Sequence record: MT446390.1
Length of the DNA: 64,000 nucleotides
Source: Escherichia phage TH12
Direction: 5' to 3' (one strand)
Both the position numbers and the translations under genes were made by a program. Below the pieces are notes generated by a model. The model made no database searches, was not told the DNA's origin, and saw only the letters and a program-made list of their open reading frames with translations. Positions 30,674 to 63,066 of this stretch are shown piece after piece. The first letter of the stretch is position 1; each line of letters opens with the position of its first letter.

Positions 30674-30707
30674 TTTACATAAGGATGATGGCGTGTTACT
30701 ATCATCC
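30674..30707 (+). promoter_or_regulatory. early promoter with stem-loop (PeSL-like cassette)
   Basis: GTTTAC at 30674-30679, TACTAT 17 nt downstream, inverted repeat GGATGAT/ATCATCC flanking the -10. Confidence 0.6.
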
Positions 30708-30736
30708 TATCAAATAAACGACCTCAAGGAAATAAA

Positions 30737-31024
30737 ATGAAAACCTATAAAGAATTTATATCACCTGATGCTAACGTTTCTACTCTGACTGAAGCAACCC
30801 TTACTTCCGAAGTTATTAAAGCAAATAAAGGACGTGAGGGCAAACCAATGATTAGTCTGGTTGACGGCGAAGAAGTAAAAGGTACTGTTTACTTAGGGGA
30901 TGGATGGTCTGCTAAGAAAGATGGCGCTACTATTGTTATCTCTCCGGCTGAAGAGACTGCACTGTTTAAAGCTAAGCATATTTCTGTAGCTCAGCTTAAA
31001 ATTATTGCAAAAACCCTTCTGTAA
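30737..31024 (+). CDS. ipI: internal protein I (IPI)-like, capsid-targeted
   Basis: 95 aa; N-terminal capsid targeting sequence MKTYKEFI...; C-terminus GWSAKKDGATIVISPAEETALFKAKHIS resembles T4 IPI. Confidence 0.8.
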   Translation: MKTYKEFISPDANVSTLTEATLTSEVIKANKGREGKPMISLVDGEEVKGTVYLGDGWSAKKDGATIVISPAEETALFKAKHISVAQLKIIAKTLL

Positions 31025-31027
31025 GTA

Positions 31028-31065
31028 GTTTACATGCTAATAGGACTATGTTATAGTAGTCCTAT
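31028..31065 (+). promoter_or_regulatory. early promoter / stem-loop cassette
   Basis: GTTTAC -35; 26-nt palindromic element ATAGGACTATGTTATAGTAGTCCTAT at 31040-31065 containing the -10. Confidence 0.6.
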
Positions 31066-31087
31066 CAAAATTAATTAGGAAAATAAA

Positions 31088-31396
31088 ATGAAAACCTATA
31101 AAGAATTTATCAATGAAGCGGCTGCACCAAAGACATTTGTTATTAATACTCAAGCGAGTCTTGATGATGAGTACGCGGATGCAATTCTGAGGTCACTTGC
31201 TAAGAACGGTGTTGAAGTATCTGCATCAGACTTTAAGAAAGGGTCTTCCGAGATGTTTATTTCTATAACTAAAGGATCTAAAGCTAAGATTAAATCATCA
31301 TTCGGAGTTGCTCGCACCGATCAAATCGACAGTCATGACTTTAAACAAACTGGTGTTAAACGGCAGAATACGATTGCATCACGCGGAATAAAATAG
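31088..31396 (+). CDS. internal-protein-like protein with capsid targeting sequence
   Basis: 102 aa; N-terminus MKTYKEFINEAAAPK (CTS-like, Glu at position 10). Confidence 0.65.
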   Translation: MKTYKEFINEAAAPKTFVINTQASLDDEYADAILRSLAKNGVEVSASDFKKGSSEMFISITKGSKAKIKSSFGVARTDQIDSHDFKQTGVKRQNTIASRGIK

Positions 31397-31407
31397 TTTA
31401 TAAAACC

Positions 31408-31444
31408 GTTTACTTTTAGATAGGGTGGTGATACTATTACCCTA
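31408..31444 (+). promoter_or_regulatory. early promoter / stem-loop cassette
   Basis: GTTTAC, TACTAT, inverted repeat TAGGGT/ACCCTA. Confidence 0.55.
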
Positions 31445-31465
31445 TCAACTACTGAGGAGAATAAA

Positions 31466-31651
31466 ATGAAACGCGCTGAACTGATTCGTAATGTTGCTGT
31501 AGTAATTGCTTCAATGGCTTTTAGTTTTTCGATGTTTGTAGGATTCATTTGTGGACTACTGACAACAACAGAAAATTCTATCTCATTGGTAGTAGCATTT
31601 CTAATCGGCTTAATCGCTATCGTTATGGATAAAATTGCAAAAGGTGAGTAA
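31466..31651 (+). CDS. small hydrophobic (membrane) protein
   Basis: 61 aa ORF with RBS GAGGAG; predicted TM helices. Confidence 0.45.
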   Translation: MKRAELIRNVAVVIASMAFSFSMFVGFICGLLTTTENSISLVVAFLIGLIAIVMDKIAKGE

Positions 31652-34427: not shown

Positions 34428-34446
34428 GGGGACTTCGGTCCCCTTT
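34428..34446 (+). terminator. terminator hairpin
   Basis: GGGGAC-ttcg-GTCCCC tetraloop hairpin then TTTAGG. Confidence 0.5.
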
Positions 34447-34474
34447 AGGGGGTCTATAACTTACTGAAAAAGTT

Positions 34475-34503
34475 GTTTACTTCTTCCCTAGATGTGTTAC
34501 TAT
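34475..34503 (+). promoter_or_regulatory. early promoter
   Basis: GTTTAC, 17 nt, TACTAT. Confidence 0.55.
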
Positions 34504-34531
34504 GGTCCTATTAAAACATGAGGAGAATAGT

Positions 34532-34837
34532 ATGAGTCTTTATACTGAACTGAATAAAAAATCTGAAGAATCTGCTGAAACTATTTTTAAAAACGTGCAA
34601 AAGCGTATTTTAGAAAAGATGTATAACACTGCAGCTAAAGGTGAAAAATCTTGCCGGTTCCCGATGAGGTGTTCTTCTGATTTATGCGCAAATACTATTG
34701 AATGGCTGGAAAGTGAAGGTCTTACGGTAGAGAAAAACCCGGCGATTTCTATTGACAGCGAATCATATATTAGTATTTCTTGGGATAAACCACGTACGAA
34801 TGAAGGATACTACAAGTTGTTAAGTTGGAAAAATTAA
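34532..34837 (+). CDS. hypothetical protein
   Basis: Start set to ATG 34532 (MSLYTELNKKSEES...) after RBS GAGGAGAA. Confidence 0.5.
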   Translation: MSLYTELNKKSEESAETIFKNVQKRILEKMYNTAAKGEKSCRFPMRCSSDLCANTIEWLESEGLTVEKNPAISIDSESYISISWDKPRTNEGYYKLLSWKN

Positions 34838-34905
34838 AAATAATGATGTACAAACACCAAGGATGGTGATACTATAGACTTATCAACTACAGAGGAGTAA
34901 ACAAA

Positions 34906-35070
34906 ATGACTACTTTAATTATTTGGTTCGATGAAAATGAAGAAACATACTGTGTGAATATTGGTGAAAGTCCAATGCCTGAATTTGAATCCTCAGATAA
35001 AAACTCTGTTGTATCTTGGGCTGAAGGTTATAAAGCCGCTAAAGGTGACGTTGAAATAATTTACATCTAA
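34906..35070 (+). CDS. small hypothetical protein (54 aa, not in ORF track)
   Basis: ATG preceded by RBS AGAGGAG and an upstream promoter-like cassette; reads MTTLIIWFDENEETYCVNIGESPMPEFESS... Confidence 0.4.
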   Translation: MTTLIIWFDENEETYCVNIGESPMPEFESSDKNSVVSWAEGYKAAKGDVEIIYI

Positions 35071-35117
35071 GTACGTTTATGTTATAGTAATCACATCAAA
35101 TCAAGAGGAGAAACAAA

Positions 35118-35372
35118 ATGGCTAAAGTTAGTATTGATGTCGTTGATTACGAATACACCGAAGAAGTTATTCGCAACCGTCACCCTGAAGTTCGTATCGA
35201 TTCAGCCCAAGATTCCAAGTTCTGGACAACTGAGCTTAATCTGAGTGGTCCTTATGAAGCTGTTAAGAAGTTCATGGTTGAAGAATACTGTGAAGGCATG
35301 CACCCCGAAGACGCCAAGTTTTATGTCAATTTGATTAAAAATAATTTACAAACTCTTGAGAGCAGAGTATAA
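35118..35372 (+). CDS. hypothetical protein
   Basis: 84 aa ORF with RBS AGAGGAGA. Confidence 0.5.
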   Translation: MAKVSIDVVDYEYTEEVIRNRHPEVRIDSAQDSKFWTTELNLSGPYEAVKKFMVEEYCEGMHPEDAKFYVNLIKNNLQTLESRV

Positions 35373-35414
35373 TGCTCTCATTGGATAATAAACCACCAAT
35401 TGAAAGGTAATAAT

Positions 35415-36008
35415 ATGAACACACTGAAGAAACTTGTTGAATTCATCCGCACTAAACTGGGTACTGCTATGGCTAAAAATCTGACTGTCGAAGAACAGTA
35501 TAACGCAGCTGCAGATAAGTTGATTACCCAAATCAAAGAACTAAAAACGGCTTCTGTTAAATCTATTAATGAAGAAAAACGTATTCGCGAACTTGTTATT
35601 GAAAAGAATAAGCAAGCCGCTTCTAAGGAACGTGAAATTCGTAAGCTCCTGGCTGAAGGACAAGATGTTACCATGCATGCTAAGCTTGGTCTTCTGTATC
35701 GTCGAACTGCCGAACAACTTAATACAAAAGCTGACGGGTATGCCGCTATGCGAATTGAAATTGCTCGTAAGGTGGTTGAACTTGATGATGCTCGTCAGAA
35801 TCTGGCAATCAAACTCGAATACATTCGTGAAACTCGAGCAGCCAATGCCCTTGGTATCTCTACGGCTGATGATGTAATTGAAATCGCTGCACTGACTAAG
35901 GTTGATATCGAAGACACTCTGACTCGTGTTGAAACGTTCAATGGTACTCCAGCCGGTGTCGAAACCACTTCTGCTGATGTACAAGAATATATTAACTCTT
36001 TGAAATAA
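35415..36008 (+). CDS. coiled-coil protein, possibly PspA/IM30-like
   Basis: Start at ATG 35415 ([23 protein letters not shown]...); long amphipathic helices reminiscent of PspA; followed by a terminator. Confidence 0.45.
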
Positions 36009-37710: not shown

Positions 37711-37908
37711 ATGTCTCGTGAATTAGATTGTGCTGTACGTACGGCCGTAGCTGCTCTAGAAAACCTGTTCCAGATTGCAACCGAAGAGCGTGAAGAAGTT
37801 ACATTGTGGATTGAAGATAATGCAGGTCTGAATCTCCAGGACGCAATCTCGTTATCAAATAATAGTATTACTGTTCAAGGCTGGGTATCATCTAGTTATT
37901 CTTGCTAA
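37711..37908 (+). CDS. hypothetical protein, paralog family member C (C-terminal QGWVSSSYSC)
   Basis: 65 aa ORF; conserved junction TAAGGAAATCATATG. Confidence 0.5.
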   Translation: MSRELDCAVRTAVAALENLFQIATEEREEVTLWIEDNAGLNLQDAISLSNNSITVQGWVSSSYSC

Positions 37909-37913
37909 AACAG

Positions 37914-37950
37914 TTTACAACAAGATAGGGCTATGTTATAGTAGTCCTAT
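37914..37950 (+). promoter_or_regulatory. early promoter / stem-loop cassette
   Basis: GTTTAC -35; element ATAGGGCTATGTTATAGTAGTCCTAT, one mismatch from the 31040 copy. Confidence 0.6.
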
Positions 37951-37970
37951 CAAATTAAATGGAGACAACA

Positions 37971-38210
37971 ATGGTTTATTACGAAAGTATAGGAACCGAA
38001 GTAGTTGCTAAAACTATTACTCGTGAAAAGTTTGCAAAGATATTCGATATGCGTTATAAAAAATCTGAACACAAAGGCATCCGATTCGAAGATGCGCACT
38101 GTACAATTTGCCCTTATAATGAAGACATAAACGGCACAATCGTTCCATTAGTAGAGGCTTCACATGACGACCTCTGGGATGAATATAATATCGCATGTCG
38201 CGAAATTTAA
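37971..38210 (+). CDS. hypothetical protein
   Basis: Start at second ATG (MVYYESIGTEVVAK...), which has RBS GGAGACAACA. Confidence 0.5.
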   Translation: MVYYESIGTEVVAKTITREKFAKIFDMRYKKSEHKGIRFEDAHCTICPYNEDINGTIVPLVEASHDDLWDEYNIACREI

Positions 38211-38235: not shown

Positions 38236-39192
38236 ATGATGTTAGTTATTGGTTCTCGTGCACTTCACTATCACGGTCTTATTGATTCTAGCGCTATCAA
38301 AAATAGTGACTGGGACTTTATTGCGGACCAAGGTTCTTGGAATGTATTCAAAAATCAAATGATGGGTGTATATGTTCACCAAGATAACCCTGATGTCCAA
38401 GTTTTCAAATGCTTCCATAATGGACGCGAAACTCATTTTGAAGCATATATTGTTCCGGCAATCACTAATGTCCGTGAATTAGTCGGTGAACTCACTCCTG
38501 AAGATTTCACGTCTTCTTATGACCTTTTAAAATACGCCAAGAAAAATTTGACTAAAGACCGTTTGAACGGGTTTTACTGGGCAACTCCTGAGATGTGTCT
38601 TGCAATTAAGATGTCTCATCGTTTCAAGAAAAATAATCCATTCTTTTTAAAGACTATGAACCATATTCAGTATCTTCGTGGTAAAGGTGTTACACTTAAC
38701 GATGAACTTACTGAAATTATGCTGAAACGCCAGAAAGAAACCTTGAACTATGCTCACCCAGTTCTTGACACTTCTAAAAGCGCATTCTTTAAAGATGACA
38801 TCTATACGTATGACCATGATACTATTCACGAAGCCATTGCACTAACAGACCGTCCAGCGTATACATTTTATATGAAAGATGGTTCTGAAGTCATGACCTC
38901 ACGCGAGAAGTTCGAATCATTACCAGAAATGGTCAAATTAGCCGGCGTATACGAAGAATCATGTGTACTAGCGTTAGAACGTTCTCAGATTCCTAATAAC
39001 TTTGAAATCCATCCACGTGATAGTTTTATGATGGCATTAGAAAAAGTCTGTACTTCAATCACGTCAGGCTGGTTCCGTGAATACGCTTGGGAAAACTACA
39101 GCAAAGTTGTAAGTATGTACCAAAGCTTAGGACATGACGATTATGTAAAACGTTTTAAACAAAATTTCCATATGGTAAAACCTTTCAAATAA
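38236..39192 (+). CDS. hypothetical protein with possible nucleotidyltransferase-fold motif
   Basis: 318 aa; N-terminal VIGSRALHYHGLIDSSAIKNSDWDF resembles the G[GS]...DxD NTase signature with a longer spacer. Confidence 0.5.
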   Translation: MMLVIGSRALHYHGLIDSSAIKNSDWDFIADQGSWNVFKNQMMGVYVHQDNPDVQVFKCFHNGRETHFEAYIVPAITNVRELVGELTPEDFTSSYDLLKYAKKNLTKDRLNGFYWATPEMCLAIKMSHRFKKNNPFFLKTMNHIQYLRGKGVTLNDELTEIMLKRQKETLNYAHPVLDTSKSAFFKDDIYTYDHDTIHEAIALTDRPAYTFYMKDGSEVMTSREKFESLPEMVKLAGVYEESCVLALERSQIPNNFEIHPRDSFMMALEKVCTSITSGWFREYAWENYSKVVSMYQSLGHDDYVKRFKQNFHMVKPFK

Positions 39193-39204
39193 TTTCGCAA
39201 AACT

Positions 39205-39242
39205 GTTTACACAATTATAGGACTATGTTATAGTAGTCCTAT
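39205..39242 (+). promoter_or_regulatory. early promoter / stem-loop cassette
   Basis: GTTTAC; exact copy of the 26-nt element ATAGGACTATGTTATAGTAGTCCTAT at 39217-39242. Confidence 0.6.
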
Positions 39243-39262
39243 TAAAACATGAGGAGAATATT

Positions 39263-39568
39263 ATGAAATTAGGCGAAACCAACCGAATTGGTCTTTTAAC
39301 TATATTTGTATCACTTTTTTACGTAGCTCTTTCTGTTGCAGTATTACAAAAGGCTTACGATATGGATGGTGTTCCTGGTTTTGTATTCTTATCACCATTT
39401 TTATTATTCGTCGGGGCTTTGTTATTATATGCCACGACTAGTTTTGACCATAACGTCTGGGTTAATTATAAATGTAAATTGTCTGAAGAAGAACACGCAG
39501 AAGCTCGTAAAAAAGCTATTGAATCTACCAATCTAGAAAATTTCATTAAAGAATGTCGAGGAAAATAA
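39263..39568 (+). CDS. hypothetical membrane protein
   Basis: 101 aa; two hydrophobic helices; RBS GAGGAGAA. Confidence 0.5.
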   Translation: MKLGETNRIGLLTIFVSLFYVALSVAVLQKAYDMDGVPGFVFLSPFLLFVGALLLYATTSFDHNVWVNYKCKLSEEEHAEARKKAIESTNLENFIKECRGK

Positions 39569-41951: not shown

Positions 41952-42229
41952 AAACATATAGTGAATTTTTATCAGAATCTATTCTTAACGAAGCTACTGA
42001 CACATTTGCAACTAAGCTAGGTGCAGCTTTGGTTGAAGCCGAAAGTCTATTAGCACGTATTTCTGAACTTGCTAGTAAGATAGATACTCGCAAATTTGAA
42101 CGTACCAGCGATATCGCTAAGCTTGAAGCCTTGTTACGTATGTGCGATAAACCGGAAGAAATCGCTAAGAACGGCTCGCTGATGAAACAACGTCTTGAAA
42201 AATATATTTCAGGCGCTTCAGAAAAATAG
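41933..42229 (+). CDS. internal-protein-like protein with capsid targeting sequence
   Basis: 98 aa; N-terminus [18 protein letters not shown]. Confidence 0.6.
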
Positions 42230-42230
42230 T

Positions 42231-42284
42231 GTTTACTTCCTCCAAGGGTTTTGATACTATACATTCATCAACTACTTGGAGGAA
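42231..42284 (+). promoter_or_regulatory. early promoter for denV embedded in a 10-bp inverted repeat that pairs the RBS
   Basis: GTTTAC at 42231-42236, TACTAT at 42255-42260; TTCCTCCAAG (42237-42246) is the exact reverse complement of CTTGGAGGAA (42275-42284). Confidence 0.6.
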
Positions 42285-42287
42285 ATT

Positions 42288-42701
42288 ATGACTCGTATCA
42301 ATTTAACACTTGTTTCTGAACTGACCGATCAACATCTTATGGCTGAGTATCGTGAATTACCACGCGTATTTAGTGCAGTCCGTAAACATGTCCAAAACGG
42401 TAAACGTGTAAAGGATTTTAAAATCTCTCCAACATTTATCTTAGGCACAGGTCACGTAACATTCTTTTACGACAAACTTGAATTTTTACGTTTACGACAA
42501 ATCGAGCTAATCGCTGAATGCTTGAAACGTGGTTTCAAAATCAAGGACACGACAGTCCAGGATATTTCCGACATCCCTGCCGAATTTCGTAATAATTATG
42601 TCCCGTCCGAAGCGTCCGTTGCGATAAGTCAAGCACGCTTAGATGAAAAAATTGCTCAACGTCCTACTTGGTACAAATACTATGGTAAATCAATTTACTA
42701 A
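42288..42701 (+). CDS. denV: endonuclease V, pyrimidine dimer DNA glycosylase (DenV)
   Basis: Start at [28 protein letters not shown]...; near-identical to T4 DenV. Confidence 0.95.
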
Positions 42702-42707
42702 GGAAAA

Positions 42708-42968
42708 ATGAAAATGTATCAAGAATTTATCATTGAAGCAGATGCCAAAGGTCCTAAATTTAAAGTTAAAGCTTTCATTGGTGATGCCGAAGACTTTGGC
42801 TCATTAAAACGTAATGGGTATTCTTTCTTAGGTGGCGATGGTAAAGAAATCAACACCTATGCAAAACGTAGTGAAATTGCTTATGTTGTAGTAAATCCTA
42901 AAGTAGATGTTGACGATATTGGATACGATTTTAACAACTTCGGAATTATTTCTGGCGGTAAAGCTTAA
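42708..42968 (+). CDS. internal-protein-like protein with capsid targeting sequence
   Basis: 86 aa; N-terminus MKMYQEFIIEADAKG. Confidence 0.6.
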   Translation: MKMYQEFIIEADAKGPKFKVKAFIGDAEDFGSLKRNGYSFLGGDGKEINTYAKRSEIAYVVVNPKVDVDDIGYDFNNFGIISGGKA

Positions 42969-42971
42969 ATT

Positions 42972-43001
42972 GTTTACGCTTAAGTATTAATATGGTATAA
43001 T
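42972..43001 (+). promoter_or_regulatory. early promoter
   Basis: GTTTAC, 18 nt, TATAAT. Confidence 0.6.
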
Positions 43002-43032
43002 TACTCTATCAAAACAAACAAGGAAACAAAAA

Positions 43033-43335
43033 ATGAAAACATATCAAGAATTTATTACTGAAGCGCGAGTGAGTGCAGGTAAATTAGAAGCCGCTATAAA
43101 TAAAAAGGCCCATTCATTTCATGATTTGTCCGATAAAGACCGTAAGAAACTTGTAAGCCTTTATATTGACAAAGAGCGTATTCTCGCTCTTCCTGGCGCT
43201 AATGAAGGTAAACAGGCCAAGCCTTTGAATGCTGTCGAAAAGAAAATTGATAACTTTGCTTCTAAATTCGGTATGTCTATGGATGACCTTCAGCAAGCGG
43301 CTATCGAAGCAGCTAAAGTAATTAAAGGTAAATAA
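43033..43335 (+). CDS. ipII: internal protein II (IPII)-like, capsid-targeted
   Basis: 100 aa; N-terminus MKTYQEFITEARVSAGKLEAA...; basic. Confidence 0.7.
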   Translation: MKTYQEFITEARVSAGKLEAAINKKAHSFHDLSDKDRKKLVSLYIDKERILALPGANEGKQAKPLNAVEKKIDNFASKFGMSMDDLQQAAIEAAKVIKGK

Positions 43336-43448
43336 CAGTTTACTTTCTCCTAGAATTGTGATAGTATATTCATAATTACTTAGAGGGGTAAATACAGAAA
43401 TGGACAATTCATGCGCCACGGAATGGCCCAACCTAAAAGAGAAACTAA

Positions 43449-45142: not shown

Positions 45143-45441
45143 TGGCTCAAATCCTATCAGGCTTTGGAACTCATTATGAAGCATCTAGACGCATAACTGA
45201 AAGCAATCCTTTTGGCCTTGTTCCGAAGCACAAGAAAATTCAAAGCCTTGATGACTTTGAGAACCGCCTATGGGCCCTCTTTAATGAGTACAAGGCATAT
45301 CTGAAAGAAGACGCTGACGATTGTCTTGAAGAAGATGAGATTGCGTATTACGAACAACGCCTTGAACAGCTCAAGAACTTCCATCAGGTTCGTGACGAAG
45401 TATCTAAAGCAGTTAAAAAGTTAATTCCTTTCAAAGAGTAG
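45142..45441 (+). CDS. hypothetical protein (vs.3 position)
   Basis: 99 aa ORF immediately upstream of regB. Confidence 0.5.
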
Positions 45442-45491
45442 TTTACTTCTCCTCTAGTTGTGTTACTATAGACTTGTCAACTAGAGGAGAA
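45441..45491 (+). promoter_or_regulatory. early promoter for regB embedded in a 14-bp inverted repeat that pairs the RBS
   Basis: GTTTAC at 45441-45446; TTCTCCTCTAGTTG (45447-45460) is the exact reverse complement of CAACTAGAGGAGAA (45478-45491). Confidence 0.6.
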
Positions 45492-48845: not shown

Positions 48846-48875
48846 AGCCCCTTCCTTATGGTTGGGGCTTTTTGG
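48846..48875 (+). terminator. rho-independent terminator
   Basis: AGCCCC-ttccttatggtt-GGGGCT followed by TTTTTGG. Confidence 0.65.
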
Positions 48876-48884
48876 CATTTAACA

Positions 48885-48935
48885 GTTTACTTCTCCTTGA
48901 GATGTGTTATAGTAGTCCTTACTTACTAGAGGAGA
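48885..48935 (+). promoter_or_regulatory. early promoter with RBS-pairing inverted repeat
   Basis: GTTTAC; TTATAGT -10; TTCTCCT (48891-48897) complementary to AGGAGAA (48929-48935). Confidence 0.55.
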
Positions 48936-48940
48936 ACGTT

Positions 48941-49120
48941 ATGACACGTAAAGAAAAGATTTCTAAGTTGATGTTTTTGATTGAAGAGTACGCTAATGCG
49001 GTATCTGATTGGGAAAATGCTCATGGTTGCGAAGATGGAGACATCGACATTAACAGGGCTATGAAAAAGATGGCCGACGCTCACACCGAATTGCAAATGT
49101 ATGTTAACGAGATTATGTGA
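48941..49120 (+). CDS. small hypothetical protein
   Basis: Start at ATG 48941 (MTRKEKISKLMFLIEEY...) after RBS AGAGGAGAA. Confidence 0.45.
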   Translation: MTRKEKISKLMFLIEEYANAVSDWENAHGCEDGDIDINRAMKKMADAHTELQMYVNEIM

Positions 49121-49127: not shown

Positions 49128-49334
49128 ATGCTTTACGATTATACTGGAAAATCTGAAGACGGTGTACTTGAACTTTTACCTGAAAGCGCTGAAGATGATG
49201 ATATGGTGGTGATGTTTTGTAAAAATGGCCCTGGGGATAAGGGATGGATTTATCTTCGCCAAGAAAATGACCTAATTGTTTTAGACCCTAAACAAGTTGA
49301 AGAACTTTATCAACATTTAAAACACAATCGGTAG
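49128..49334 (+). CDS. small hypothetical protein
   Basis: Start at ATG 49128 (MLYDYTGKSEDG...) after RBS TGAGGA. Confidence 0.45.
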   Translation: MLYDYTGKSEDGVLELLPESAEDDDMVVMFCKNGPGDKGWIYLRQENDLIVLDPKQVEELYQHLKHNR

Positions 49335-49372
49335 TTTACATCTTGGTAGGACTATGTTATAGTAGTCCTACC
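49335..49372 (+). promoter_or_regulatory. early promoter / stem-loop cassette
   Basis: GTTTAC; inverted repeat GGTAGGACTA/TAGTCCTACC around TGTTATAG. Confidence 0.6.
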
Positions 49373-49391
49373 AAAACAAACGGAGAACAAA

Positions 49392-49502
49392 ATGAAACTT
49401 TTGCTTATCGCTTATGTTGTAGTACAATACAATTATCCGATGTTTACTTATAACATGGTAAACGGCATAGTGAATCTTATTGAAACGAGTATGGTAAAAT
49501 GA
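49392..49502 (+). CDS. small hydrophobic peptide (36 aa, not in ORF track)
   Basis: ATG after RBS CGGAGAA; MKLLLIAYVVVQYNYPMFTYNMVNGIVNLIETSMVK. Confidence 0.3.
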   Translation: MKLLLIAYVVVQYNYPMFTYNMVNGIVNLIETSMVK

Positions 49503-51680: not shown

Positions 51681-51698
51681 AAGGGCCTTCGGGCCCTT
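51681..51698 (+). terminator. tetraloop hairpin
   Basis: AAGGGCC-ttcg-GGCCCTT directly after the NTase gene stop. Confidence 0.5.
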
Positions 51699-51726
51699 TA
51701 GGGGGTCAAAATATTTTTAAAAAGTA

Positions 51727-51760
51727 GTGTACATGTTTTTAGGATATGTTATTATAGACC
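51727..51760 (+). promoter_or_regulatory. early promoter-like cassette
   Basis: GTGTAC -35-like; GTTATTATAGACCTATC shared with the cassette at 53198. Confidence 0.45.
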
Positions 51761-51794
51761 TATCAAAACGAAATGAGTAAATTTGGAGAATAAA

Positions 51795-52775
51795 ATGTTC
51801 AACGTTCAAATCAAAAAAGGTATCTATCGTAATAATGAAATCTCCGGTTCTTATGTTGCCACAAAGACATGGTTCCCAGCAAAGCTTAATCCTGAATGTT
51901 CCCACTTAGGTGACGGTAAAATTTTCGTTATGATTGATGGTTCTGAACGTGGAGTATGGGTCTTCAAATCAGACATCGTAATGGAAGGAGTTGAGACGAC
52001 ACCAGTTGCAGTTGTTGAAAGCACTGAAGATATGAAAACTCGTATCAACAAACGCTTTAAAGTAATGAACATGATGACGAATGGCATTATCGATGGCAAA
52101 ATTCGTTCACTCATTATTTCAGGTGCAGCTGGTATTGGTAAGACGTATTCTCTGGATAAAGCGCTTAATAATGCTAATGATAATGGTTTCATCAAATACA
52201 AAAGCATTAATGGTAAAATCTCTGGTATTGGCCTTTACGAACAACTTTGGCTCAACCGTGATGCAGACAGCGTTCTCTTAATCGACGATGTTGATGTATT
52301 CTCGGATATGGATATCTTGAACCTTCTTAAAGCAGCATTAGATACTGGTGATAAACGCAAAGTTTGCTGGAGCACTGCATCATCTTATCTTGATGATAAG
52401 GGTATCGATAAAGAATTTGAGTTTGAAGGTACTATTGTTTTCATTACAAACGTTGATATCGATAAAGAGTTAGAACGCGGTTCGAAACTTGCTCCGCACC
52501 TTCAAGCTTTAGTATCTCGTTCAGTGTATCTCGACCTTGGAGTACACTCTAATGAAGAGATTATGGTTCGAGTTGAAGATGTAATATTATCTACTGACAT
52601 GATGCAGAAACGTGGTCTGACGGATGCAGAAACGTATAAAGCATTGTCCTGGATGAAGGCTAACGTATCTCGTCTTCGCAATGTATCATTACGTACGGCT
52701 CTTTATGTAGCAGATTTTATTTCAACCGATAAAGATGGTTGGGAGGAAATCTCTGAAGTAACTTTACTGAAATAA
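51795..52775 (+). CDS. AAA+/P-loop ATPase
   Basis: Start at ATG 51795 (MFNVQIKKG...) after RBS TGGAGAA; Walker A ISGAAGIGKTYS, Walker B VLLIDDVDVF, sensor-1-like IVFITNVD. Confidence 0.6.
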   Translation: MFNVQIKKGIYRNNEISGSYVATKTWFPAKLNPECSHLGDGKIFVMIDGSERGVWVFKSDIVMEGVETTPVAVVESTEDMKTRINKRFKVMNMMTNGIIDGKIRSLIISGAAGIGKTYSLDKALNNANDNGFIKYKSINGKISGIGLYEQLWLNRDADSVLLIDDVDVFSDMDILNLLKAALDTGDKRKVCWSTASSYLDDKGIDKEFEFEGTIVFITNVDIDKELERGSKLAPHLQALVSRSVYLDLGVHSNEEIMVRVEDVILSTDMMQKRGLTDAETYKALSWMKANVSRLRNVSLRTALYVADFISTDKDGWEEISEVTLLK

Positions 52776-52907
52776 GCTTATAGGAAGTTCTGAGGTAAGC
52801 CATAAAGATGAATAATCATATGGCTTACCTCAAAGAAGGACACCAGGAACCTACTGAGGGCATAGAAATATTTAAAATAATGATGTACAAATCAAAGAGG
52901 ATATGTT

Positions 52908-53195
52908 ATGGATTTTATGCAAAAAAATAAAGCCGCAGTCGAACTCTATGCTCATCGTATGGTTAGTTCTACAATGCAATATAGCGAGGAAGTTCGCCAG
53001 GACTCTTCCTTGAAAGGAAAAACTAAAGCCTTAATTACCTTAGATCGTTTGCAAAAGAATGCCATAGAGATGCTCCAGTACGACAAGAGTGTATATAAGA
53101 AAGAACAGGAAGAGAAACTTAAATCTGAAAAGTTACAGAAAACCCCGAAGTCGGTTTGGTTCAGTGGAAAAAATACTGAAAAAAGTTTCTTTTAG
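52908..53195 (+). CDS. hypothetical protein
   Basis: 95 aa ORF. Confidence 0.45.
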   Translation: MDFMQKNKAAVELYAHRMVSSTMQYSEEVRQDSSLKGKTKALITLDRLQKNAIEMLQYDKSVYKKEQEEKLKSEKLQKTPKSVWFSGKNTEKSFF

Positions 53196-53197
53196 TT

Positions 53198-53231
53198 GTT
53201 TACAAGGTCTATGGTTGTGTTATTATAGACC
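53198..53231 (+). promoter_or_regulatory. early promoter / stem-loop cassette
   Basis: GTTTAC; TATTAT; inverted repeat GGTCTAT/ATAGACC. Confidence 0.55.
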
Positions 53232-53253
53232 TATCAACTACTGGAGGTAAAAC

Positions 53254-53781
53254 ATGAACGCTAAAGATATTTTCAACCTGGTAAATTATAACGACGGTAA
53301 ATTTAAATCTGAAGCACAGAGCAAGTTCTTTAATGACGTTGCTTATGGTAACGAGATTACCGTGGATGGAGGTCAGATTTTCAAATCTCGCTGGAATTGG
53401 ATTGCTATCATCGATTCAGTTGGAATTGTGGAAGTCTACAAAAACACTAACAAAAAACGTACATTATTCTGGTCTCGTGAAACTAACGAACAGTACAAAA
53501 AGGATAAAGCATCTCGTTTATCCAAAGTAACCCAGGAAGATATCGAGTTTATCAAGAAAGATATCGAGATGTACGAAAATTTAATAGCTGAAGACCAGGC
53601 AGTACTCGATAAGTTTGATGAAATTAAAGCTTCTCGTGAAATCCCTGACTTCATGAAAGAAACAGTAAACGAACGATACGCTCTCACTTCAGAACGTATT
53701 GCAAACTATACAAAACAGAAAGCAGAACGTATTAGTACTCTTCGGAAATTTGAAGAACGTTTAAAGACGGTTCACGCATAA
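53254..53781 (+). CDS. hypothetical protein
   Basis: 175 aa ORF with RBS TGGAGGT. Confidence 0.5.
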   Translation: MNAKDIFNLVNYNDGKFKSEAQSKFFNDVAYGNEITVDGGQIFKSRWNWIAIIDSVGIVEVYKNTNKKRTLFWSRETNEQYKKDKASRLSKVTQEDIEFIKKDIEMYENLIAEDQAVLDKFDEIKASREIPDFMKETVNERYALTSERIANYTKQKAERISTLRKFEERLKTVHA

Positions 53782-53843: not shown

Positions 53844-54839
53844 ATGAGCATTATATCTGATGCGGTAAAACATGAAATTAACGGTTTATGTGCTTCACAG
53901 ATTAAAGTGTGGTTTAAAGACCATAACGATCGCAGAGCACTTAATTATGAGCAAATTGCTATCCAAGTTCATCAATTACTGACTAGTAAATTTGATTTTC
54001 ATATGCCATCTGAAATCTATACTAATCTGCCACGAGCACTTATTAAAGCGTGTAAAGGTTATGGAAAATCAATGGCTGATGGAATCTTCAGCGCGCTGAA
54101 TAAACTTAACGTTCTGTCGATGATTAACTCTAACAATATCCTGCGTAATCTAGGACGTACTGATTTGTTCGGACGTGAACAGTGTAAAATGCCTTTGAAA
54201 TGGATTGTTGCTCATCTTAACGAGAACCAAACACGTTTTATGGCCGTAACAGCACGTTTACAAATGGGCTTAGATCGTCAGATGAACTTTAAAACTCATC
54301 CATGTTATTCAGGTTCAACAGACTTTTATAAATGCGAGCTTCAAAAGGTCGGTGGCAAAACTGTCTTAGTAGTTCGTGTAACGTTTGAAGGACGACGTCA
54401 AGGATATTTTGACATAATCGGCTCTGGTCTTAAACATTGTGGATTTATCAACGAAGTTGATATCAAGCGAGACAGCGTTGGATACCGTATTGGGTATGTT
54501 TGTACTCTTAAAGAAGAGATTTCAGGACCAGCACCAGGACTAAAAGACGTTAGATATAAAGACGAGCTCGTTGAAGAAATAAAAGAAGTTGAATATGATA
54601 TCAACCAAGAAGATGCTCTTAAAGACCTTATTGACGAACTAAACCAAGACGTTATTCCGGTTCAGAAATTTGAATCAAAACATGCTGAGCAAATCAAATA
54701 CTTTGAAGCTTTGATTAACGAACTTAATGTAACTATTCAACAGACTGACGATGAAATCTCACGATTAGCAGGCTTAAATGGTAAAAATAAAACAGAACGA
54801 GCTAATCTTATTCAAGTAGTAAAACTTCTTAAGGAATGA
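53844..54839 (+). CDS. hypothetical protein with C-terminal coiled coil
   Basis: 331 aa ORF with RBS TGAGGAAA. Confidence 0.5.
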   Translation: MSIISDAVKHEINGLCASQIKVWFKDHNDRRALNYEQIAIQVHQLLTSKFDFHMPSEIYTNLPRALIKACKGYGKSMADGIFSALNKLNVLSMINSNNILRNLGRTDLFGREQCKMPLKWIVAHLNENQTRFMAVTARLQMGLDRQMNFKTHPCYSGSTDFYKCELQKVGGKTVLVVRVTFEGRRQGYFDIIGSGLKHCGFINEVDIKRDSVGYRIGYVCTLKEEISGPAPGLKDVRYKDELVEEIKEVEYDINQEDALKDLIDELNQDVIPVQKFESKHAEQIKYFEALINELNVTIQQTDDEISRLAGLNGKNKTERANLIQVVKLLKE

Positions 54840-54843
54840 TGTA

Positions 54844-54868
54844 CAACCAAGGATGGTTGGAGTATAAT
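54844..54868 (+). promoter_or_regulatory. early promoter cassette (25-nt repeat copy 1)
   Basis: CAACCAAGGATGGTTGGAGTATAAT, identical to the copy at 55874-55898. Confidence 0.55.
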
Positions 54869-54894
54869 AAATTTTTCAACATGAGGAATATAAA

Positions 54895-55854
54895 ATGGCT
54901 TTTATTACACGTAGAGAACTTATCAAAGAATTTACCTCGAACGCATATACTCCAGGACCTAATCCTATCCGTATGCCTGTAAAGACTCCTGAAGAGATTG
55001 AGGAAATCTGTTCGTATTATGGGATTACTTCTCGTATGTTTACTCAATTTGAATGTGTTACTAACACGCCCGTTAAAGAGTTCATTAAAAATGGTGAGTT
55101 CAGCCGTTTATTAGCCAAACAGAAACTTCGTAATTTTTGTATTGGCGGTTGTGGACAATATTTCGCTAAGCAGTTCCGGAATAACCTTAACAATCTGATG
55201 GCCATTGCTTCTCGTATTCGTCCTCAAGCAATTAACATGAAACATTTGAAATATACTTACGATAAGTTAGAAATCATGGTTATCAGTGAGAACGAGTTCA
55301 CTCTTACGTATAAACCTAAGAATGATAACGTTGCTCGTGTATTCCACCAAGCGCTAGAAGTGTTAGGCGATAATATCCATGAGATTAAAGCAATTTATTC
55401 TCGTGAGCTTAATATTATCGACCCTATCAAGAATAAGGGCCATATCGCTATCCAGGCTCGTGTATCTATTGGTAAAAAGGTTCCTGCGCCATGGTGGCAC
55501 AAAGACTCTGAATACTATCAAAATCTTAAAAAGGAAAATGCAACGTTCGAAGGCAATATCACAGCAACACCAGTCGGTAATGCAGAGGTTCTAAGCGCAT
55601 ATTCTCCGACACAACCCGGTATGTTTAAAGGTTTGCCAAATGTGTGCAAACTGTCGGCAGTAAAACTAAATGTTTCTAATGACCTTCTTCCGGCCGAAGA
55701 TTATCATTACAACCAAATCAAGGCTACTGTAGACCAACTGTCCGTTGAACTTGACAAAGCACAAGCTAAGCTTCGTGATGCTCAAAGTGTTGTAACGAAT
55801 CTCCAGTTGCAGTACTCTAAACTTTTTAATGCAATGAATGCATTAAAATCATAA
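54895..55854 (+). CDS. hypothetical protein with C-terminal coiled coil
   Basis: 319 aa ORF; flanked on both sides by identical promoter cassettes. Confidence 0.5.
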   Translation: MAFITRRELIKEFTSNAYTPGPNPIRMPVKTPEEIEEICSYYGITSRMFTQFECVTNTPVKEFIKNGEFSRLLAKQKLRNFCIGGCGQYFAKQFRNNLNNLMAIASRIRPQAINMKHLKYTYDKLEIMVISENEFTLTYKPKNDNVARVFHQALEVLGDNIHEIKAIYSRELNIIDPIKNKGHIAIQARVSIGKKVPAPWWHKDSEYYQNLKKENATFEGNITATPVGNAEVLSAYSPTQPGMFKGLPNVCKLSAVKLNVSNDLLPAEDYHYNQIKATVDQLSVELDKAQAKLRDAQSVVTNLQLQYSKLFNAMNALKS

Positions 55855-55868
55855 AACGGTTTACAACC

Positions 55869-55898
55869 AAGGATGGTTGGAGTATAATGAATCTATCT
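55869..55898 (+). promoter_or_regulatory. early promoter cassette (25-nt repeat copy 2)
   Basis: GTTTAC at 55869 then CAACCAAGGATGGTTGGAGTATAAT. Confidence 0.6.
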
Positions 55899-55916
55899 TA
55901 ACGAGAGGAAAATATT

Positions 55917-56867
55917 ATGACACGTTCACATTACATTGAATACTTTGCCGGTCTTATCGCTAACGTTCATGCCCAGCGCGCTGTTGGTGCACTAGGATTT
56001 GATGTTCCACACCGAGATGTAGTAAGTGGTATTCTTCGCGATTTTGGTACATACACAGGTCAAGAAAATCATATCTGTAAAGATACTCAGAATGCGTATT
56101 CTCATTCATTAGGGACACTGCTTCAATGGTTCAAACGTTCTCGTTTATTATCTTCTACTGTAGCTCGCGATAACATTAAAAACTTTATGAAACCGAGCTT
56201 TATTAAATCTGTGACATCTAAAACCGATTTGGTTGAATTCACTATTGTTAATGATGTTAAAAAGACTCATTTGGCTGATTGGTTATCTACCATTCCTGAA
56301 ACTAAATTCGCTGATAAATTTGCTTGTGAATTCAATAACCAAGTGAATATGCTTTTTAAACATTCTCGTAAATTATTCACGGGCGGTGATGGTCGTACAA
56401 ATAAAGTTCATGTTAAAGATTGGGTTACTGCAGTATTCAAACCGACCGGTAATGGTAACGCATCATTATCAATTGATATCCAGGTTCCTTATTACTACTC
56501 ACGTAATCTCGGTACCATGAAAGCTGAAGAAATTAATAAGCATAACAAAACCGTTCGTTCATTGTCTTATAAACTTATTACATTGTTAGAGACTATGGAT
56601 GTTGTTGAAACGTTCGACGAATCCGAAGATAACGGTTCAATGTTATACAGTTCTCGCACCCGAATTAAGCTGAAGAACCCTAACGAGTATAAACTTAAGA
56701 CTATTAAAGAACCTAAAGTAGAAAAAGTTGACAACTTGAGCGAAGAACGTGAATATCTCAAATCTCGTCTGAAAGAAGTCGAAGCCCAGATTAAAGAACA
56801 GACTAAATCATTAAAAGCTCTGAATGCAAAAGCTGATGGTTTACGAAATGCTATTGAGGTTTTATAA
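55917..56867 (+). CDS. hypothetical protein with C-terminal coiled coil
   Basis: 316 aa ORF with RBS GAGAGGAAA. Confidence 0.5.
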   Translation: MTRSHYIEYFAGLIANVHAQRAVGALGFDVPHRDVVSGILRDFGTYTGQENHICKDTQNAYSHSLGTLLQWFKRSRLLSSTVARDNIKNFMKPSFIKSVTSKTDLVEFTIVNDVKKTHLADWLSTIPETKFADKFACEFNNQVNMLFKHSRKLFTGGDGRTNKVHVKDWVTAVFKPTGNGNASLSIDIQVPYYYSRNLGTMKAEEINKHNKTVRSLSYKLITLLETMDVVETFDESEDNGSMLYSSRTRIKLKNPNEYKLKTIKEPKVEKVDNLSEEREYLKSRLKEVEAQIKEQTKSLKALNAKADGLRNAIEVL

Positions 56868-58488: not shown

Positions 58489-58616
58489 ACCGTGGTATTC
58501 TGCTCGATGGGAGACTGTCGAGCCAGACGTCGAAACGGTTTACAACGACGAAGAACCATGTTATGATGAACCTTCAATAAATGAATTAATTGATATGGAA
58601 ATGGGAAGAGATTATT

Positions 58617-58787
58617 ATGCAAGTTAAATTATTGTACCGTTTATTAAAAAATGGCAAGCATGATTGGTATTTGCTTATTAAAACCGATCCGAATTTTTTC
58701 TCTGGACAACCATTTACAGTTCGTCCTACTAAACGTCAGCTTCGCAAAGCTAAACGTTCTCATCGTAACTTTTATAGAGAATATTGA
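58617..58787 (+). CDS. small basic hypothetical protein
   Basis: Start at ATG 58617 (MQVKLLYRLLKNGKHDWY...). Confidence 0.35.
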   Translation: MQVKLLYRLLKNGKHDWYLLIKTDPNFFSGQPFTVRPTKRQLRKAKRSHRNFYREY

Positions 58788-61525: not shown

Positions 61526-61992
61526 ATTATGATAGATTTTATCCTTGCGATTTTGTGAATGGTCCTGGTTGTAGGGTCGTTCTTTTCGTTACGGGGTGTT
61601 TGCATAAATGCGAAGGGTGTTATAATAAATCAACATGGAATGCTAGAAATGGTATTCCATTCACTGGTGAAACACTAGAACAATTAATTGAATGTTTGAA
61701 TAATTATTATATAGAAGGATTAACTATAACCGGAGGAGACCCTCTCTATCCTGATAACCGAGATGTTATTCATTACATTGTTCAAACAGTAAAAAATCTT
61801 TATCCCAATAAAAGCATTTGGTTGTGGACAGGATATAAGTTTGAAGATATTAAACAGCTAGAAATGCTTAAATATGTTGATGTTATTATTGATGGGAAGT
61901 ATGAGAAAAATCTTCCGACCAAAAAGCTGTGGCGAGGATCAGATAATCAGCGACTTTGGTCAAATACCGATGGGGTGTGGAAACATGATTAA
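61522..61992 (+). CDS. nrdG: anaerobic RNR activating protein NrdG (radical SAM)
   Basis: 156 aa; radical-SAM Cys cluster CLHKCEGCYNK. Confidence 0.9.
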   Translation: MNYDRFYPCDFVNGPGCRVVLFVTGCLHKCEGCYNKSTWNARNGIPFTGETLEQLIECLNNYYIEGLTITGGDPLYPDNRDVIHYIVQTVKNLYPNKSIWLWTGYKFEDIKQLEMLKYVDVIIDGKYEKNLPTKKLWRGSDNQRLWSNTDGVWKHD

Positions 61993-62103
61993 ATTGAATT
62001 ACATTATGGATACTATAAATGATATGATTTTTCATTTTGGTCCAGAATTTTATTCGCAATATGGTTTGCTTATCAATGCTTGGTTAATTAATTAAGGGTA
62101 AAT

Positions 62104-62319
62104 ATGTATAAATTTCGTAAAGGTTTAGCTGATTTTCTTACAACTGTAACGTTCTTTTTGTTTATGGCAGTTGGAGCTATTTTTCTTATTCCTTTTACTG
62201 GTGTATTTTTCGTGATTAGTTTAATTTCTCCAGAAAAGGGCTTATCTTCTAATGAGTTCAATGAGCGTCTGGATAAAATTACTAACAAACTGAATTCTGT
62301 TCTTGATAAAAAGGCTTAA
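62104..62319 (+). CDS. small membrane protein
   Basis: 71 aa, hydrophobic core. Confidence 0.45.
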   Translation: MYKFRKGLADFLTTVTFFLFMAVGAIFLIPFTGVFFVISLISPEKGLSSNEFNERLDKITNKLNSVLDKKA

Positions 62320-62321
62320 TT

Positions 62322-62639
62322 ATGATTAGTTTTGAGCGGTATGTAGTAGAGAGTTGGAATGGGTTTGATATGTTCGGTAATGACTATTATTTTTACGAAT
62401 GTAATCTAAATCCTAGTTTTTGGGCTGGACGTGAACGAGATCTCGAAGAAATTAATGCTCGCGCCGAATTGTTAGGTGAACTGCCTACAGTTTATTTTAC
62501 ATTTGATGAATCTGGATTTGTTATCCAGGTTTATTTTCCTGAAGAAAACTCTGGTGAGGATTCTGTTAATCCTCCTTATTGGGCTTATCAAGGAATTATT
62601 TCTCGTGGAACAAAACTCGAACTTAAAGAACAAGATTGA
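62322..62639 (+). CDS. hypothetical protein
   Basis: 105 aa ORF. Confidence 0.45.
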   Translation: MISFERYVVESWNGFDMFGNDYYFYECNLNPSFWAGRERDLEEINARAELLGELPTVYFTFDESGFVIQVYFPEENSGEDSVNPPYWAYQGIISRGTKLELKEQD

Positions 62640-62928
62640 AATCTATGGCATCCCTGAAGAAGTTGGACGTTGTCCAGGATGTTATACTGTTACAAAACTT
62701 TTAAAGGAGCTCAATGCTCCTTATACATTTTATAAAGTCCTCACTAATAATGGTAAGATTGAATATGACCGTCCTTTAATCGTATCTCTTGCTAAACGTG
62801 CAGGATTCACTTCACTTAATATTCGTTATCCTGTCATATTTTTAAATGGTAAGAAACAAAAGAATATTGCAGAGTTTAAAAAGTCCTTGATTTCATTAGG
62901 ATACGACTCTGATATCATAGAAGATTGA
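62605..62928 (+). CDS. glutaredoxin/thioredoxin-like protein (CPGC motif); start uncertain, possibly non-ATG
   Basis: Reading frame contains ...IEIYGIPEEVGRCPGCYTVTKLLKEL...; no in-frame ATG after the upstream gene stop; candidate GTG at 62605. Confidence 0.4.
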   Translation: MEQNSNLKNKIEIYGIPEEVGRCPGCYTVTKLLKELNAPYTFYKVLTNNGKIEYDRPLIVSLAKRAGFTSLNIRYPVIFLNGKKQKNIAEFKKSLISLGYDSDIIED

Positions 62929-62950
62929 CCAGGTGCCGCCTGGTCTTCTT
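62926..62950 (+). terminator. terminator hairpin
   Basis: GACCAGG-tgccg-CCTGGTC followed by TTCTTT. Confidence 0.5.
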
Positions 62951-63036
62951 TATCCCATTTCTAATATAATCTATTGGAACCCTCACTTCACTATCTCCTT
63001 GTGCCCCTCTCAAATCAAAAATATTTTCATAAAACA

Positions 63037-63066
63037 GTTTACATCCTCGATAGATATGTTAAGATT
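63037..63066 (+). promoter_or_regulatory. early promoter
   Basis: GTTTAC with a weak -10 (TAAGAT) about 17 nt downstream. Confidence 0.45.

Follow-up and report, generated by a model that had tools for sequence, protein, structure and literature searches.

Why does one promoter-like sequence, usually accompanied by an inverted repeat, recur at some twenty places on a single strand of a phage genome, and what is the repeat for? The question is raised by Escherichia phage TH12 (sequence record MT446390.1), of which a stretch of 64,000 nucleotides (the window) was analysed; the elements in question are distributed over its positions 30,674 to 63,066. A sequence-only reading had described them as resembling the promoter early stem-loop (PeSL) cassettes of T4-type phages, with a -35 element, a spacer of 17–18 nucleotides (nt) and a -10 element that sits inside an inverted repeat. 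We conclude, with a probability of roughly 85%, that the repeats are early-gene expression cassettes of an RB69-like T4-type phage, which provide portable homology for recombination and contain selected secondary structures. The PeSL-like assignment is thereby upheld: the sites have the features of T4-type early promoters, are orthologous to predicted early promoters of RB69 and fit the published PeSL description.

The repeated architecture on the plus strand is evident from counts alone. The strict motif GTTTAC-N17/18-TAYWRT occurs 17 times in the window, compared with 0.31 ± 0.53 times in shuffled sequence, and 16 of the 17 matches are on the plus strand, between 30673 and 63768. A position-weight matrix (PWM) trained on the sites themselves and used with a cut-off of at least 17.6 bits retrieves 21 sites (30673–63094), all on the plus strand and set apart from everything else, the highest score on the minus strand being 4.9. 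Neither scan detects a cassette among the baseplate and structural genes, which take up 30 kb; all 21 are located at 30.6–63.1 kb, which amounts, in the window, to a preference for the hyperplastic (accessory) region. A generic sigma-70 consensus scan, with 69 matches against 66 expected, was non-discriminating and was abandoned, showing that the signal is specifically the T4-type consensus and that a T4-specific matrix is needed.

By nucleotide comparison the window is that of a Mosigvirus, i.e., an RB69-like T4-type phage, with 98% identity to Shigella phage Shf125875; the segment 30000–50000 is 96–98% identical to the Mosigvirus genomes Shf125875, LF82-1, mar005P1 and JS09, and roughly 1000 genomes of Tevenvirinae have matches to it. 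The upstream part of the cassettes is highly uniform (consensus aaaAAA..GTTTACaa...taTG.TAtTAT) and consists of an A-rich UP region at about -42, a -35 element GTTTAC (with the variants ATTTAC, GTGTAC or ATGTAC at six cassettes), a 17–18 nt spacer ending in TGn, a -10 element TAnnnT, and CC(T) at -3 to -1; the A of ATCAA is the predicted start. The leader that follows is A-rich and typically 20–28 nt long (33–43 nt at three sites), and carries GAGGAG or GGAG, then A-rich sequence, then the ATG. All 21 sites are on the early strand directly 5' of open reading frames (ORFs), with 20–43 nt from the predicted +1 to an ATG preceded by a Shine-Dalgarno sequence (SD). They display both the motif and the orientation and position 5' of early genes by which T4-type early promoters are recognized, and agree with the published description of T4 early promoters (PMC2988021).

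Orthologous sites in T4 and RB69 precede ipI, trna.4, denV, regB, nrdC.8 and other genes. When applied to the homologous segments of relatives, the PWM finds 12 sites in T4, 21 in RB69, 22 in Shf125875 and 19 in mar005P1; the opposite strand of these four segments has none. Each of the 21 RB69 sites coincides, at a constant offset of 14 nt, with an early promoter predicted by Nolan et al. (2006, Virol J 3:30), whose catalogue comprises 58 sites in the supplement and 57 in the text. The cassettes share with these T4/RB69 promoters the UP region, GTTTAC, TGn, TAnnnT, the C-rich segment at -3 to -1 and the position 5' of early genes, and differ from them in nothing essential. The sites are predicted to be T4-type early promoters, their activity in this phage resting on homology to the RB69 predictions and to the promoter class mapped in T4, and as promoters the elements are already known from RB69. 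A literature search returned no publication on 5'- or 3'-end sequencing of T4 or RB69 transcripts.

A stem-loop of some geometry is present in 17–18 of the 21 cassettes and missing from three or four. The statement that the -10 lies inside an inverted repeat holds for eight short hairpins (class A) and for four to six long-range repeats that enclose it, but not for three hairpins confined to the spacer, nor for the three to four sites with nothing convincing. Together with the early promoter, SD and start codon, packed into an intergenic unit of about 70–100 bp, the stem-loops make up the PeSL composite. The native 5' and 3' halves in the window pair with -6.96 kcal/mol, compared with -4.75 ± 0.53 kcal/mol for permuted chimeras, and none of 2000 permutations reaches the native value. 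A larger sample of 265 distinct promoters was extracted with a core-only matrix from 120 T4-like loci in IMG/VR; here, a helix of at least 7 Watson-Crick pairs encloses the -10 in 50% of promoters versus 21% of chimeras, and one of at least 9 pairs in 30% versus 7.5%.

Three registers dominate, the main one with an 8-nt loop, TGnTATAn, and a 3' arm that begins with the last T of the -10 and extends to about +2. The arm sequences are diverse (e.g., GATGAGGTA, GATAGGGTA, CGAGAATCAT, GAGAGCA and GTTGACAAGATTA). Among the 31 promoters in the main register, compensatory changes occur at 13 of 14 pairs (76 cells versus 22.4 ± 4.0 in shuffles), and the covariation score is 0.52, compared with 0.22 in shuffles and at most 0.20 in slid registers; these promoters were picked for having the helix, which fixes the percentage paired by construction but not the covariation. 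The T4 orthologs of ipI and trna.4 keep the hairpin with unrelated or displaced arms, the 5' arm being displaced in trna.4; the hairpin of cassette 15 shows a compensatory G-C/A-T change relative to RB69 and mar005P1; and the T4 ortholog of the nrdC.8 cassette has a helix between spacer and SD in place of the short hairpin. By the chimera controls and the covariation, the inverted repeats are selected secondary structures.

The long-range geometry (class B) is built differently. At 42231 (denV), 45441 (regB), 43338, 48885 and 63037, and weakly at 34475, the first part of the spacer, directly after the -35, is complementary to the SD region further downstream. The class B helix covers the SD and has its 5' strand upstream of the proximal start site, as in the hairpins of T4 e, soc, 49 and I-TevI. 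In the larger sample, a spacer–leader helix of at least 10 bp occurs in 5.7% of promoters versus 0.5% of chimeras, and 21 of 24 helices of at least 8 bp include the SD. The bases beside the SD covary (TGTAG/CTACA, ATTAG/CTAAT, CATG/CATG, CAAG/CTTG), and T4 has, at the equivalent places, a denV helix of different sequence (TCTCCTGTAG/CTACAGGAGA) and a different 12-bp helix at regB. For class B only, predicted SD accessibility drops from 0.32–0.81 in the cassette's own transcript to 0.00–0.27 in read-through RNA.

The sequence shared among cassettes extends to exact copies. A 26-nt palindromic element, ATAGGACTATGTTATAGTAGTCCTAT, is identical at 31040 and 39217, as had been noticed, and recurs with one mismatch at 37925 and with two at 49346, one position before the start first given for it, where the mismatches turn an outer A-T pair into G-C; shuffled sequence contains no match. 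Of the 25-nt element, CAACCAAGGATGGTTGGAGTATAAT, two exact copies exist as reported, at 54844 and, contrary to the position 55874 given before, at 55864. Tandem gene duplication was rejected as the origin of the latter repeat: BLASTP finds no mutual similarity among nrdC.3,.5,.6,.10 and.11, and since the flanking genes are not paralogs, the repeat is confined to the promoter and fits exchange or conversion between cassettes.

Such exchange can be followed in the relatives. BLASTN alignments of the window with five close relatives were chained and every gap was listed, which yielded about 21 distinct indel or replacement events; in 13 of them a breakpoint falls no more than 80 bp from the centre of a cassette, although zones of this kind make up only about 10% of the region. 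Several alignments overlap by 36–55 bp, indicating that the inserts are flanked by two cassette copies. The cassette at 39205 is a hybrid: as far as the -35 it is identical to the left cassette of mar005P1, and from the hairpin onward to the right one, with the crossover at the -35, and its two parents flank an extra ORF in mar005P1 and JS09. The crossovers fall at the -35 and in the leader/N-terminus instead of in the hairpin. The comparison with relatives thus speaks in favour of the exchangeable modules proposed from the sequence, and the indels and replacements at cassettes support module exchange as judged from aligned genomes. The accompanying claim that cassettes bracket most of the unassigned ORFs was overstated: about 70 genes share 21 cassettes, and only some seven single-gene units have one on both sides.

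Five small genes (at 30737, 31088, 41948, 42708 and 43033) begin with MK(T/M)Y(K/Q/S)EF(I/L), the capsid-targeting N-terminus of internal proteins (IPs), and three of these five directly follow a cassette, extending the common homology to about 100 bp. By sequence and orthology, each cassette belongs to the very strong sigma-70 promoters of T4's early class, and the host RNA polymerase is predicted to fire it directly after infection. With some 50–100 bp of near-identical sequence at about 20 places on one strand, to which the IP genes add the conserved N-terminus MKTY..EFI, the recurring cassettes probably serve as portable homology for recombination, and genes between two cassettes would be gained, lost and swapped as units with their own expression signals, which the comparison with relatives supports.

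The same copies invite the explanation that the repeats were spread among promoters by gene conversion and that their complementarity is a functionless by-product of the consensus. Identical 25–26-nt cores at non-orthologous sites are in line with this, and the consensus is partly self-complementary, as seen from the 21% of chimeras that reach 7 bp or more; however, native promoters beat chimeras of the same consensus two- to six-fold, the T4 orthologs pair with unrelated arms, and the chimera and covariation tests already disfavour this explanation, which we consider very improbable. Alternatively, a dimeric phage protein could use the palindromes as operators to shut off early promoters. The -10 is at the centre of the dyad, one 26-nt palindrome serves four non-orthologous sites, and the mechanism of early shutoff is left unexplained in reviews (PMC2988021, PMC3014915), but the arms vary widely between promoters and between orthologs while compensatory changes keep them paired, in three registers and two geometries. 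Varied arms with retained pairing imply a nucleic-acid helix rather than a sequence-specific protein site, and the operator, rejected on covariation, deserves hardly any credence.

The mismatches indicate which nucleic acid this helix might be. Single internal mismatches are G.T in 24 cases and A.C in 2, versus 25 and 22 in chimeras (Fisher p 6e-4 raw, 0.018 by family), a bias that is suggestive of structure on the plus strand only, i.e., RNA or the non-template strand. A role in DNA, with a cruciform or non-template hairpin exposing the TGn/-10 and tuning either promoter opening or cleavage by endonuclease VII, the latter creating a recombination hotspot, would exploit the fact that the main-register loop is the extended -10; the indels do cluster at cassettes, and the G.T bias also fits a hairpin on the plus DNA strand alone. 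A two-strand cruciform, however, would accept G.T and A.C alike, the long-range class, whose loops are large and whose 3' arm is part of the leader, would be senseless as a promoter-opening device, and the crossovers avoid the hairpin, all of which renders the proposal improbable. The original PeSL idea assigns to the stem-loops the termination or attenuation of upstream RNA, the cassette being an insulating terminator–promoter pair. One RB49 stem-loop cuts lacZ expression about as much as rrnB T1 (Arbiol et al.), the present hairpins are intergenic and on the transcribed strand, and their G.T bias is compatible with a role at the RNA level; however, the embedded hairpins are followed by CAAAA instead of a U-tract, a terminator scan of the window calls none of them, their stems are A/T-rich and of 8–13 bp, the loops of the long-range class measure 17–25 nt, and three cassettes (34475, 48885 and 51727) possess a separate canonical G+C or UUCG terminator further upstream of the promoter. 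The lack of a U-tract and the absence of these hairpins from the scan led us to reject a canonical intrinsic terminator as the identity of the embedded hairpins, and the broader insulating role is unlikely. The only matches in a search against Rfam were two tRNAs, with no family for any of the hairpins.

We tentatively propose, at somewhat less than even odds, that the stem-loops of T-even/RB69 type are not terminators but 'transcript-origin discriminators', in which class B hides GGAG from ribosomes and RegB, and the short class marks cistron boundaries. The stem-loops probably act on one strand. As the 5' arm is upstream of the cassette's own start site, only read-through RNA from an upstream promoter can fold the repeat. 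In the long-range class (denV, regB, the vs.8 unit, mobD.2a and the gp55.8-like gene) this fold would bury the SD and keep the read-through RNA from both translation and RegB cleavage, whereas RNA started at the cassette itself would be open. The short-class hairpins stop at +2, which would leave the ribosome site free; most likely they would serve the upstream cistron as a 3' stabiliser, a boundary or an attenuator. In T4 early mRNAs, GGAG with A-rich 3' context is the target of RegB/S1 (PMC3014915). RNA structure is known to shield GGAG against RegB, and the logic of a promoter inside a hairpin applies to e, soc, 49 and I-TevI (PMC3014915). The gene regB, whose expression 'must be tightly regulated', has an early promoter with shutoff after 2–3 min (PMC3014915); a masked SD in read-through RNA would, in this model, enforce that shutoff.

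Several observations weigh against these conclusions. The loci behind the 265 promoters were selected by a single downstream motif, and many of these promoters are related. A looser count of non-canonical pairs lowers the ratio of G.T to A.C from 24:2 to 17:10, which leaves the strand-specific (RNA) argument only suggestive, and a strict decision between RNA and DNA from wobble pairs was dropped. Start sites and in vivo folding are predicted only, and any function of the short hairpins is putative; a published G/C-rich stem-loop of RB49 had terminator activity (Arbiol et al. 2010). A cross-site chimera test of anti-SD pairing confined to the window was not significant (829/5000) because all SDs in the window are alike, so that the larger sample and the helix length are needed. 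With respect to exchange, seven events are located away from cassettes (37013, 40306, 42758, the tk.3 region near 47300, 57853, 58776 and 59202), and as about 30% of gene junctions carry a cassette, the enrichment over a junction null is only modest.

The closest known system is the PeSL composite of RB49 and phi1, which comprises an AT-rich region, early promoter, stem-loop, SD and ATG, with the stem-loop most often in the -35/-10 interval or over the -10 (Arbiol et al. 2010); the concept has been extended to T4/PST and KVP40/nt-1 (Comeau et al. 2014). Like the cassettes, PeSLs are concentrated in hyperplastic regions and tied to indels between close relatives. RB49 stems, however, are polyG/polyC and one has been shown to terminate, whereas the present stems are A/T-rich and lack U-tracts; the stem-loops published for T4/PST are drawn upstream of the promoter and not around the -10; and no Mosigvirus was included in the PeSL papers. 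The T-even IP-locus elements of Repoila 1994 are presented by Arbiol et al. (2010) as analogs on T4 early promoters with weaker AT-rich stems, and both T-even IP loci lie in this window. Lambdoid 'morons' and integron cassettes resemble the present cassettes in that accessory genes travel with their own expression signals, and the integron analogy was drawn by Arbiol et al. (2010); unlike integrons, the cassettes have no integrase or attC, and exchange relies on homologous or short-homology recombination. In G+C content the ORFs do not differ from the rest of the genome (Nolan et al. 2006).

As promoters and shuffling points the cassettes are nothing new, and they confirm in a Mosigvirus what RB69, RB49, T4 and the T-even IP loci had shown. 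The only point that may be new is the anti-SD subclass together with the covarying structures embedded in the promoters. The papers on T4/RB69 early promoters that could be consulted make no mention of embedded inverted repeats (no occurrence of stem-loop or hairpin), and we found no description of SD masking at early promoters in the accessible reviews of T4 regulation. The hairpins of T4 e, soc, 49 and I-TevI resemble class B in that the 5' strand of the SD-masking helix is upstream of the promoter start and long transcripts are silent; however, their internal promoter is late (or middle) and expression is delayed, whereas in class B the promoter is early and the 5' arm is in the -35/-10 spacer. 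denV and regB are absent from the published list of such T4 hairpin leaders.

The gene order, read from the annotation of Mosigvirus relatives and RB69, is T4-like, with baseplate genes as far as gene 53 on the minus strand, and 4, 2, 3, 1, 57A, 57B, ipI, the tRNA region, e.8-e.2, nudE, e, denV and the IP genes on the plus strand, followed by vs.8-vs, regB, tk, rI, mobD, nrdC.11-nrdC, pin, 49, nrdD and nrdG. By this gene order the cassettes span what is classically the early 'hyperplastic' arm of T4-type genomes, on the early strand. Their coordinates are collected in Table 1. For the cassettes whose predicted +1 has no entry in the table, it is 34882 (cassette 5), 35095 (6), 35380 (7), 39241 (9), 43008 (11), 43374 (12), 48920 (14), 49370 (15), 51762 (16), 53233 (17), 54875 (18), 55895 (19) and 63072 (21).

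Table 1 Early-promoter cassettes (all on the plus strand), upstream terminators, exchange events and coinciding RB69 promoters
Feature	Extent or site	-35	-10	Predicted +1	ATG	Stem-loop and remarks
Cassette 1 (ipI)	30658..30739	30673-30678	30697-30702	30709	30737	class A 30682-30691/30699-30708; ortholog RB69 Pe:77187
Cassette 2 (ip7-like internal protein)	31013..31090	31028	31052	31064	31088	class A 31040-31049/31056-31065 (26-nt element)
Cassette 3 (trna.4)	31393..31468	31408	31432	31444	31466	class A 31419-31430/31435-31446
Cassette 4 (RB69ORF146c-like)	34428..34534	34475	34498	34510	34532	weak spacer–SD pairing (possibly class B)
Cassette 4 upstream terminator	34428-34443 + T-run					UUCG loop, precedes promoter
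Cassette 5 (RB69ORF145c)	34831..34908	ATGTAC 34846	34870		34906	spacer-only hairpin 34855-34859/34864-34868; RB69 Pe:72567; -35 variant overlaps stop codon of upstream gene
Cassette 6 (frd.3)	35044..35120	ATTTAC 35059	35083		35118	none convincing
Cassette 7 (e.6)	35329..35417	ATTTAC 35344	TATAAT 35368		35415	class A 35357-35364/35373-35380, different arm sequence (GAGAGC)
Cassette 8 (RB69ORF135c)	37898..37973	37913	37937	37949	37971	class A 37924-37934/37941-37951, one G.T pair
Cassette 9 (RB69ORF133c)	39190..39265	39205	39229		39263	class A 39217-39226/39233-39242; hybrid cassette
Cassette 10 (denV)	42216..42290	42231	42255	42267	42288	class B 42237-42246 (TTCCTCCAAG) with 42275-42284 (CTTGGAGGAA, SD inside)
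Cassette 11 (ipII-like internal protein)	42957..43035	42972	TATAAT 42996		43033	no hairpin; indel hotspot
Cassette 12 (upstream of vs.8)	43323..43402	43338	43362		43400	class B, -35/spacer 43338-43349 with 43383-43393 (SD region); plus inner hairpin
Cassette 13 (regB)	45426..45500	45441	45464	45476	45498	class B, 14-bp helix 45447-45460 (TTCTCCTCTAGTTG) with 45478-45491 (CAACTAGAGGAGAA)
Cassette 14 (mobD.2a)	48846..48943	48885	48908		48941	short class B, TTCTCCT 48891-48897 with AGGAGAA 48930-48936
Cassette 14 upstream terminator	48846-48874					G+C hairpin and T-run, precedes promoter
Cassette 15 (small ORF/tk.1 unit)	49319..49394	49334	49358		49392	class A, 13-bp hairpin 49343-49355/49362-49374
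Cassette 16 (nrdC.10)	51683..51797	GTGTAC 51727	51750		51795	weak hairpin
Cassette 16 upstream terminator	51683-51696					UUCG loop, precedes promoter
Degenerate 'half' cassette (upstream of nrdC.9)	52868..52910	ATGTAC 52883	no good -10			segment absent from RB69
Cassette 17 (nrdC.8)	53183..53256	53198	53221		53254	class A 53205-53215/53222-53232
Cassette 18 (nrdC.5)	54824..54897	ATGTAC 54839	TATAAT 54863		54895	spacer hairpin 54844-54849/54854-54859 (25-nt repeat)
Cassette 19 (nrdC.3)	55844..55919	55859	TATAAT 55883		55917	spacer hairpin 55864-55869/55874-55879 (25-nt repeat, second copy)
Cassette 20 (weak)	58523..58619	58538	TATGAT 58562		58617 (next ATG)	within gp49.1 coding sequence; RB69 Pe:48639
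Cassette 21 (gp55.8-like)	63022..63096	63037	TAAGAT 63060		63094	class B 63044-63053 with 63077-63086 (SD)
Event	cassette 30673					IP-gene insertion in RB69
Event	between 31028 and 31408					ip7 present or absent
Event	34475					replacement ends here
Event	34846					+217 bp
Event	39205					+262 bp ORF
Events	42972/43338					Ip10 insertion; IP replacements
Event	45441					vs.3 replacement ends here
Event	48885					+594 bp ORF
Event	next to 49334					replacement
Events	51727					two different inserts
Event	degenerate cassette 52883					lost in RB69
Coinciding RB69 promoters	Pe:77187, 76812, 76459, 73274, 72567, 72354, 72069, 69254, 67959, 64934, 64193					
Coinciding RB69 promoters, continued	Pe:61376, 58138, 57689, 55296, 55018, 53683, 52042, 51019, 48639, 42816					

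The match of cassette 20 is conserved in RB69, Shf125875 and mar005P1, and its conservation inside gp49.1 points to an internal promoter for the ORF089c/pin unit. With the core promoter matrix, the top match on the minus strand (17.2 bits, ATTTAC-N19-TATAGT) is at 27154, in the divergent 53/4 intergenic region where gene 53 starts, and may be either a real promoter or a chance match. The two UUCG-tetraloop terminators, 34428-34454 (GGGGACTTCGGTCCCC) and 51683-51707 (GGGCCTTCGGGCCC), share the tail TTTAGGGGGTC and are each located about 30 nt upstream of an early promoter; the common tail and position suggest a repeated terminator module. Near-identical terminator-like hairpins of the form AGCCCCTTCC....GGTTGGGGCTTTTT occur at about 33715-33745 and at 48846-48874, the former directly followed by a late-promoter motif, TATAAATA, at 33753. 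A G+C-rich palindrome after e.6 (36017-36034, GGAGGACTCCGGTCCTCC), with T-runs on both strands, resembles a bidirectional intrinsic terminator.

The seemingly non-coding gap at 33414-33755, after RB69ORF150c, is 89% identical to T4 70825-71173, the location of the stable small RNAs rnaC and rnaD, and holds a tRNA-like T-arm (GGTTCGAATCC); no Rfam match at the gathering score was obtained for this gap. At 37013-37025, in the region of gene e.3, about 250 bp present in all five relatives compared are absent from the window, indicating that e.3 is deleted or truncated here, and the junction at 37025 carries a perfect GTTTAC-N18-TATAAT without other cassette features.

For annotation, the cassettes define about 20 early transcription units and mark the accessory genes that are likely to be swapped between relatives. 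If class B holds in vivo, it would represent a simple and general device by which a gene in a dense polycistronic region is translatable only from its own promoter. Should the stem-loops indeed discriminate transcripts by origin, the expression of class B genes would be tied strictly to the 2–3 minute life of their own early promoters, giving a concrete reason why regB expression ends when its early promoter is shut off; the logic of the late promoters of e, soc and 49 would extend to early promoters, and part of the 'additional consensus' in T4 early promoters would be explained.

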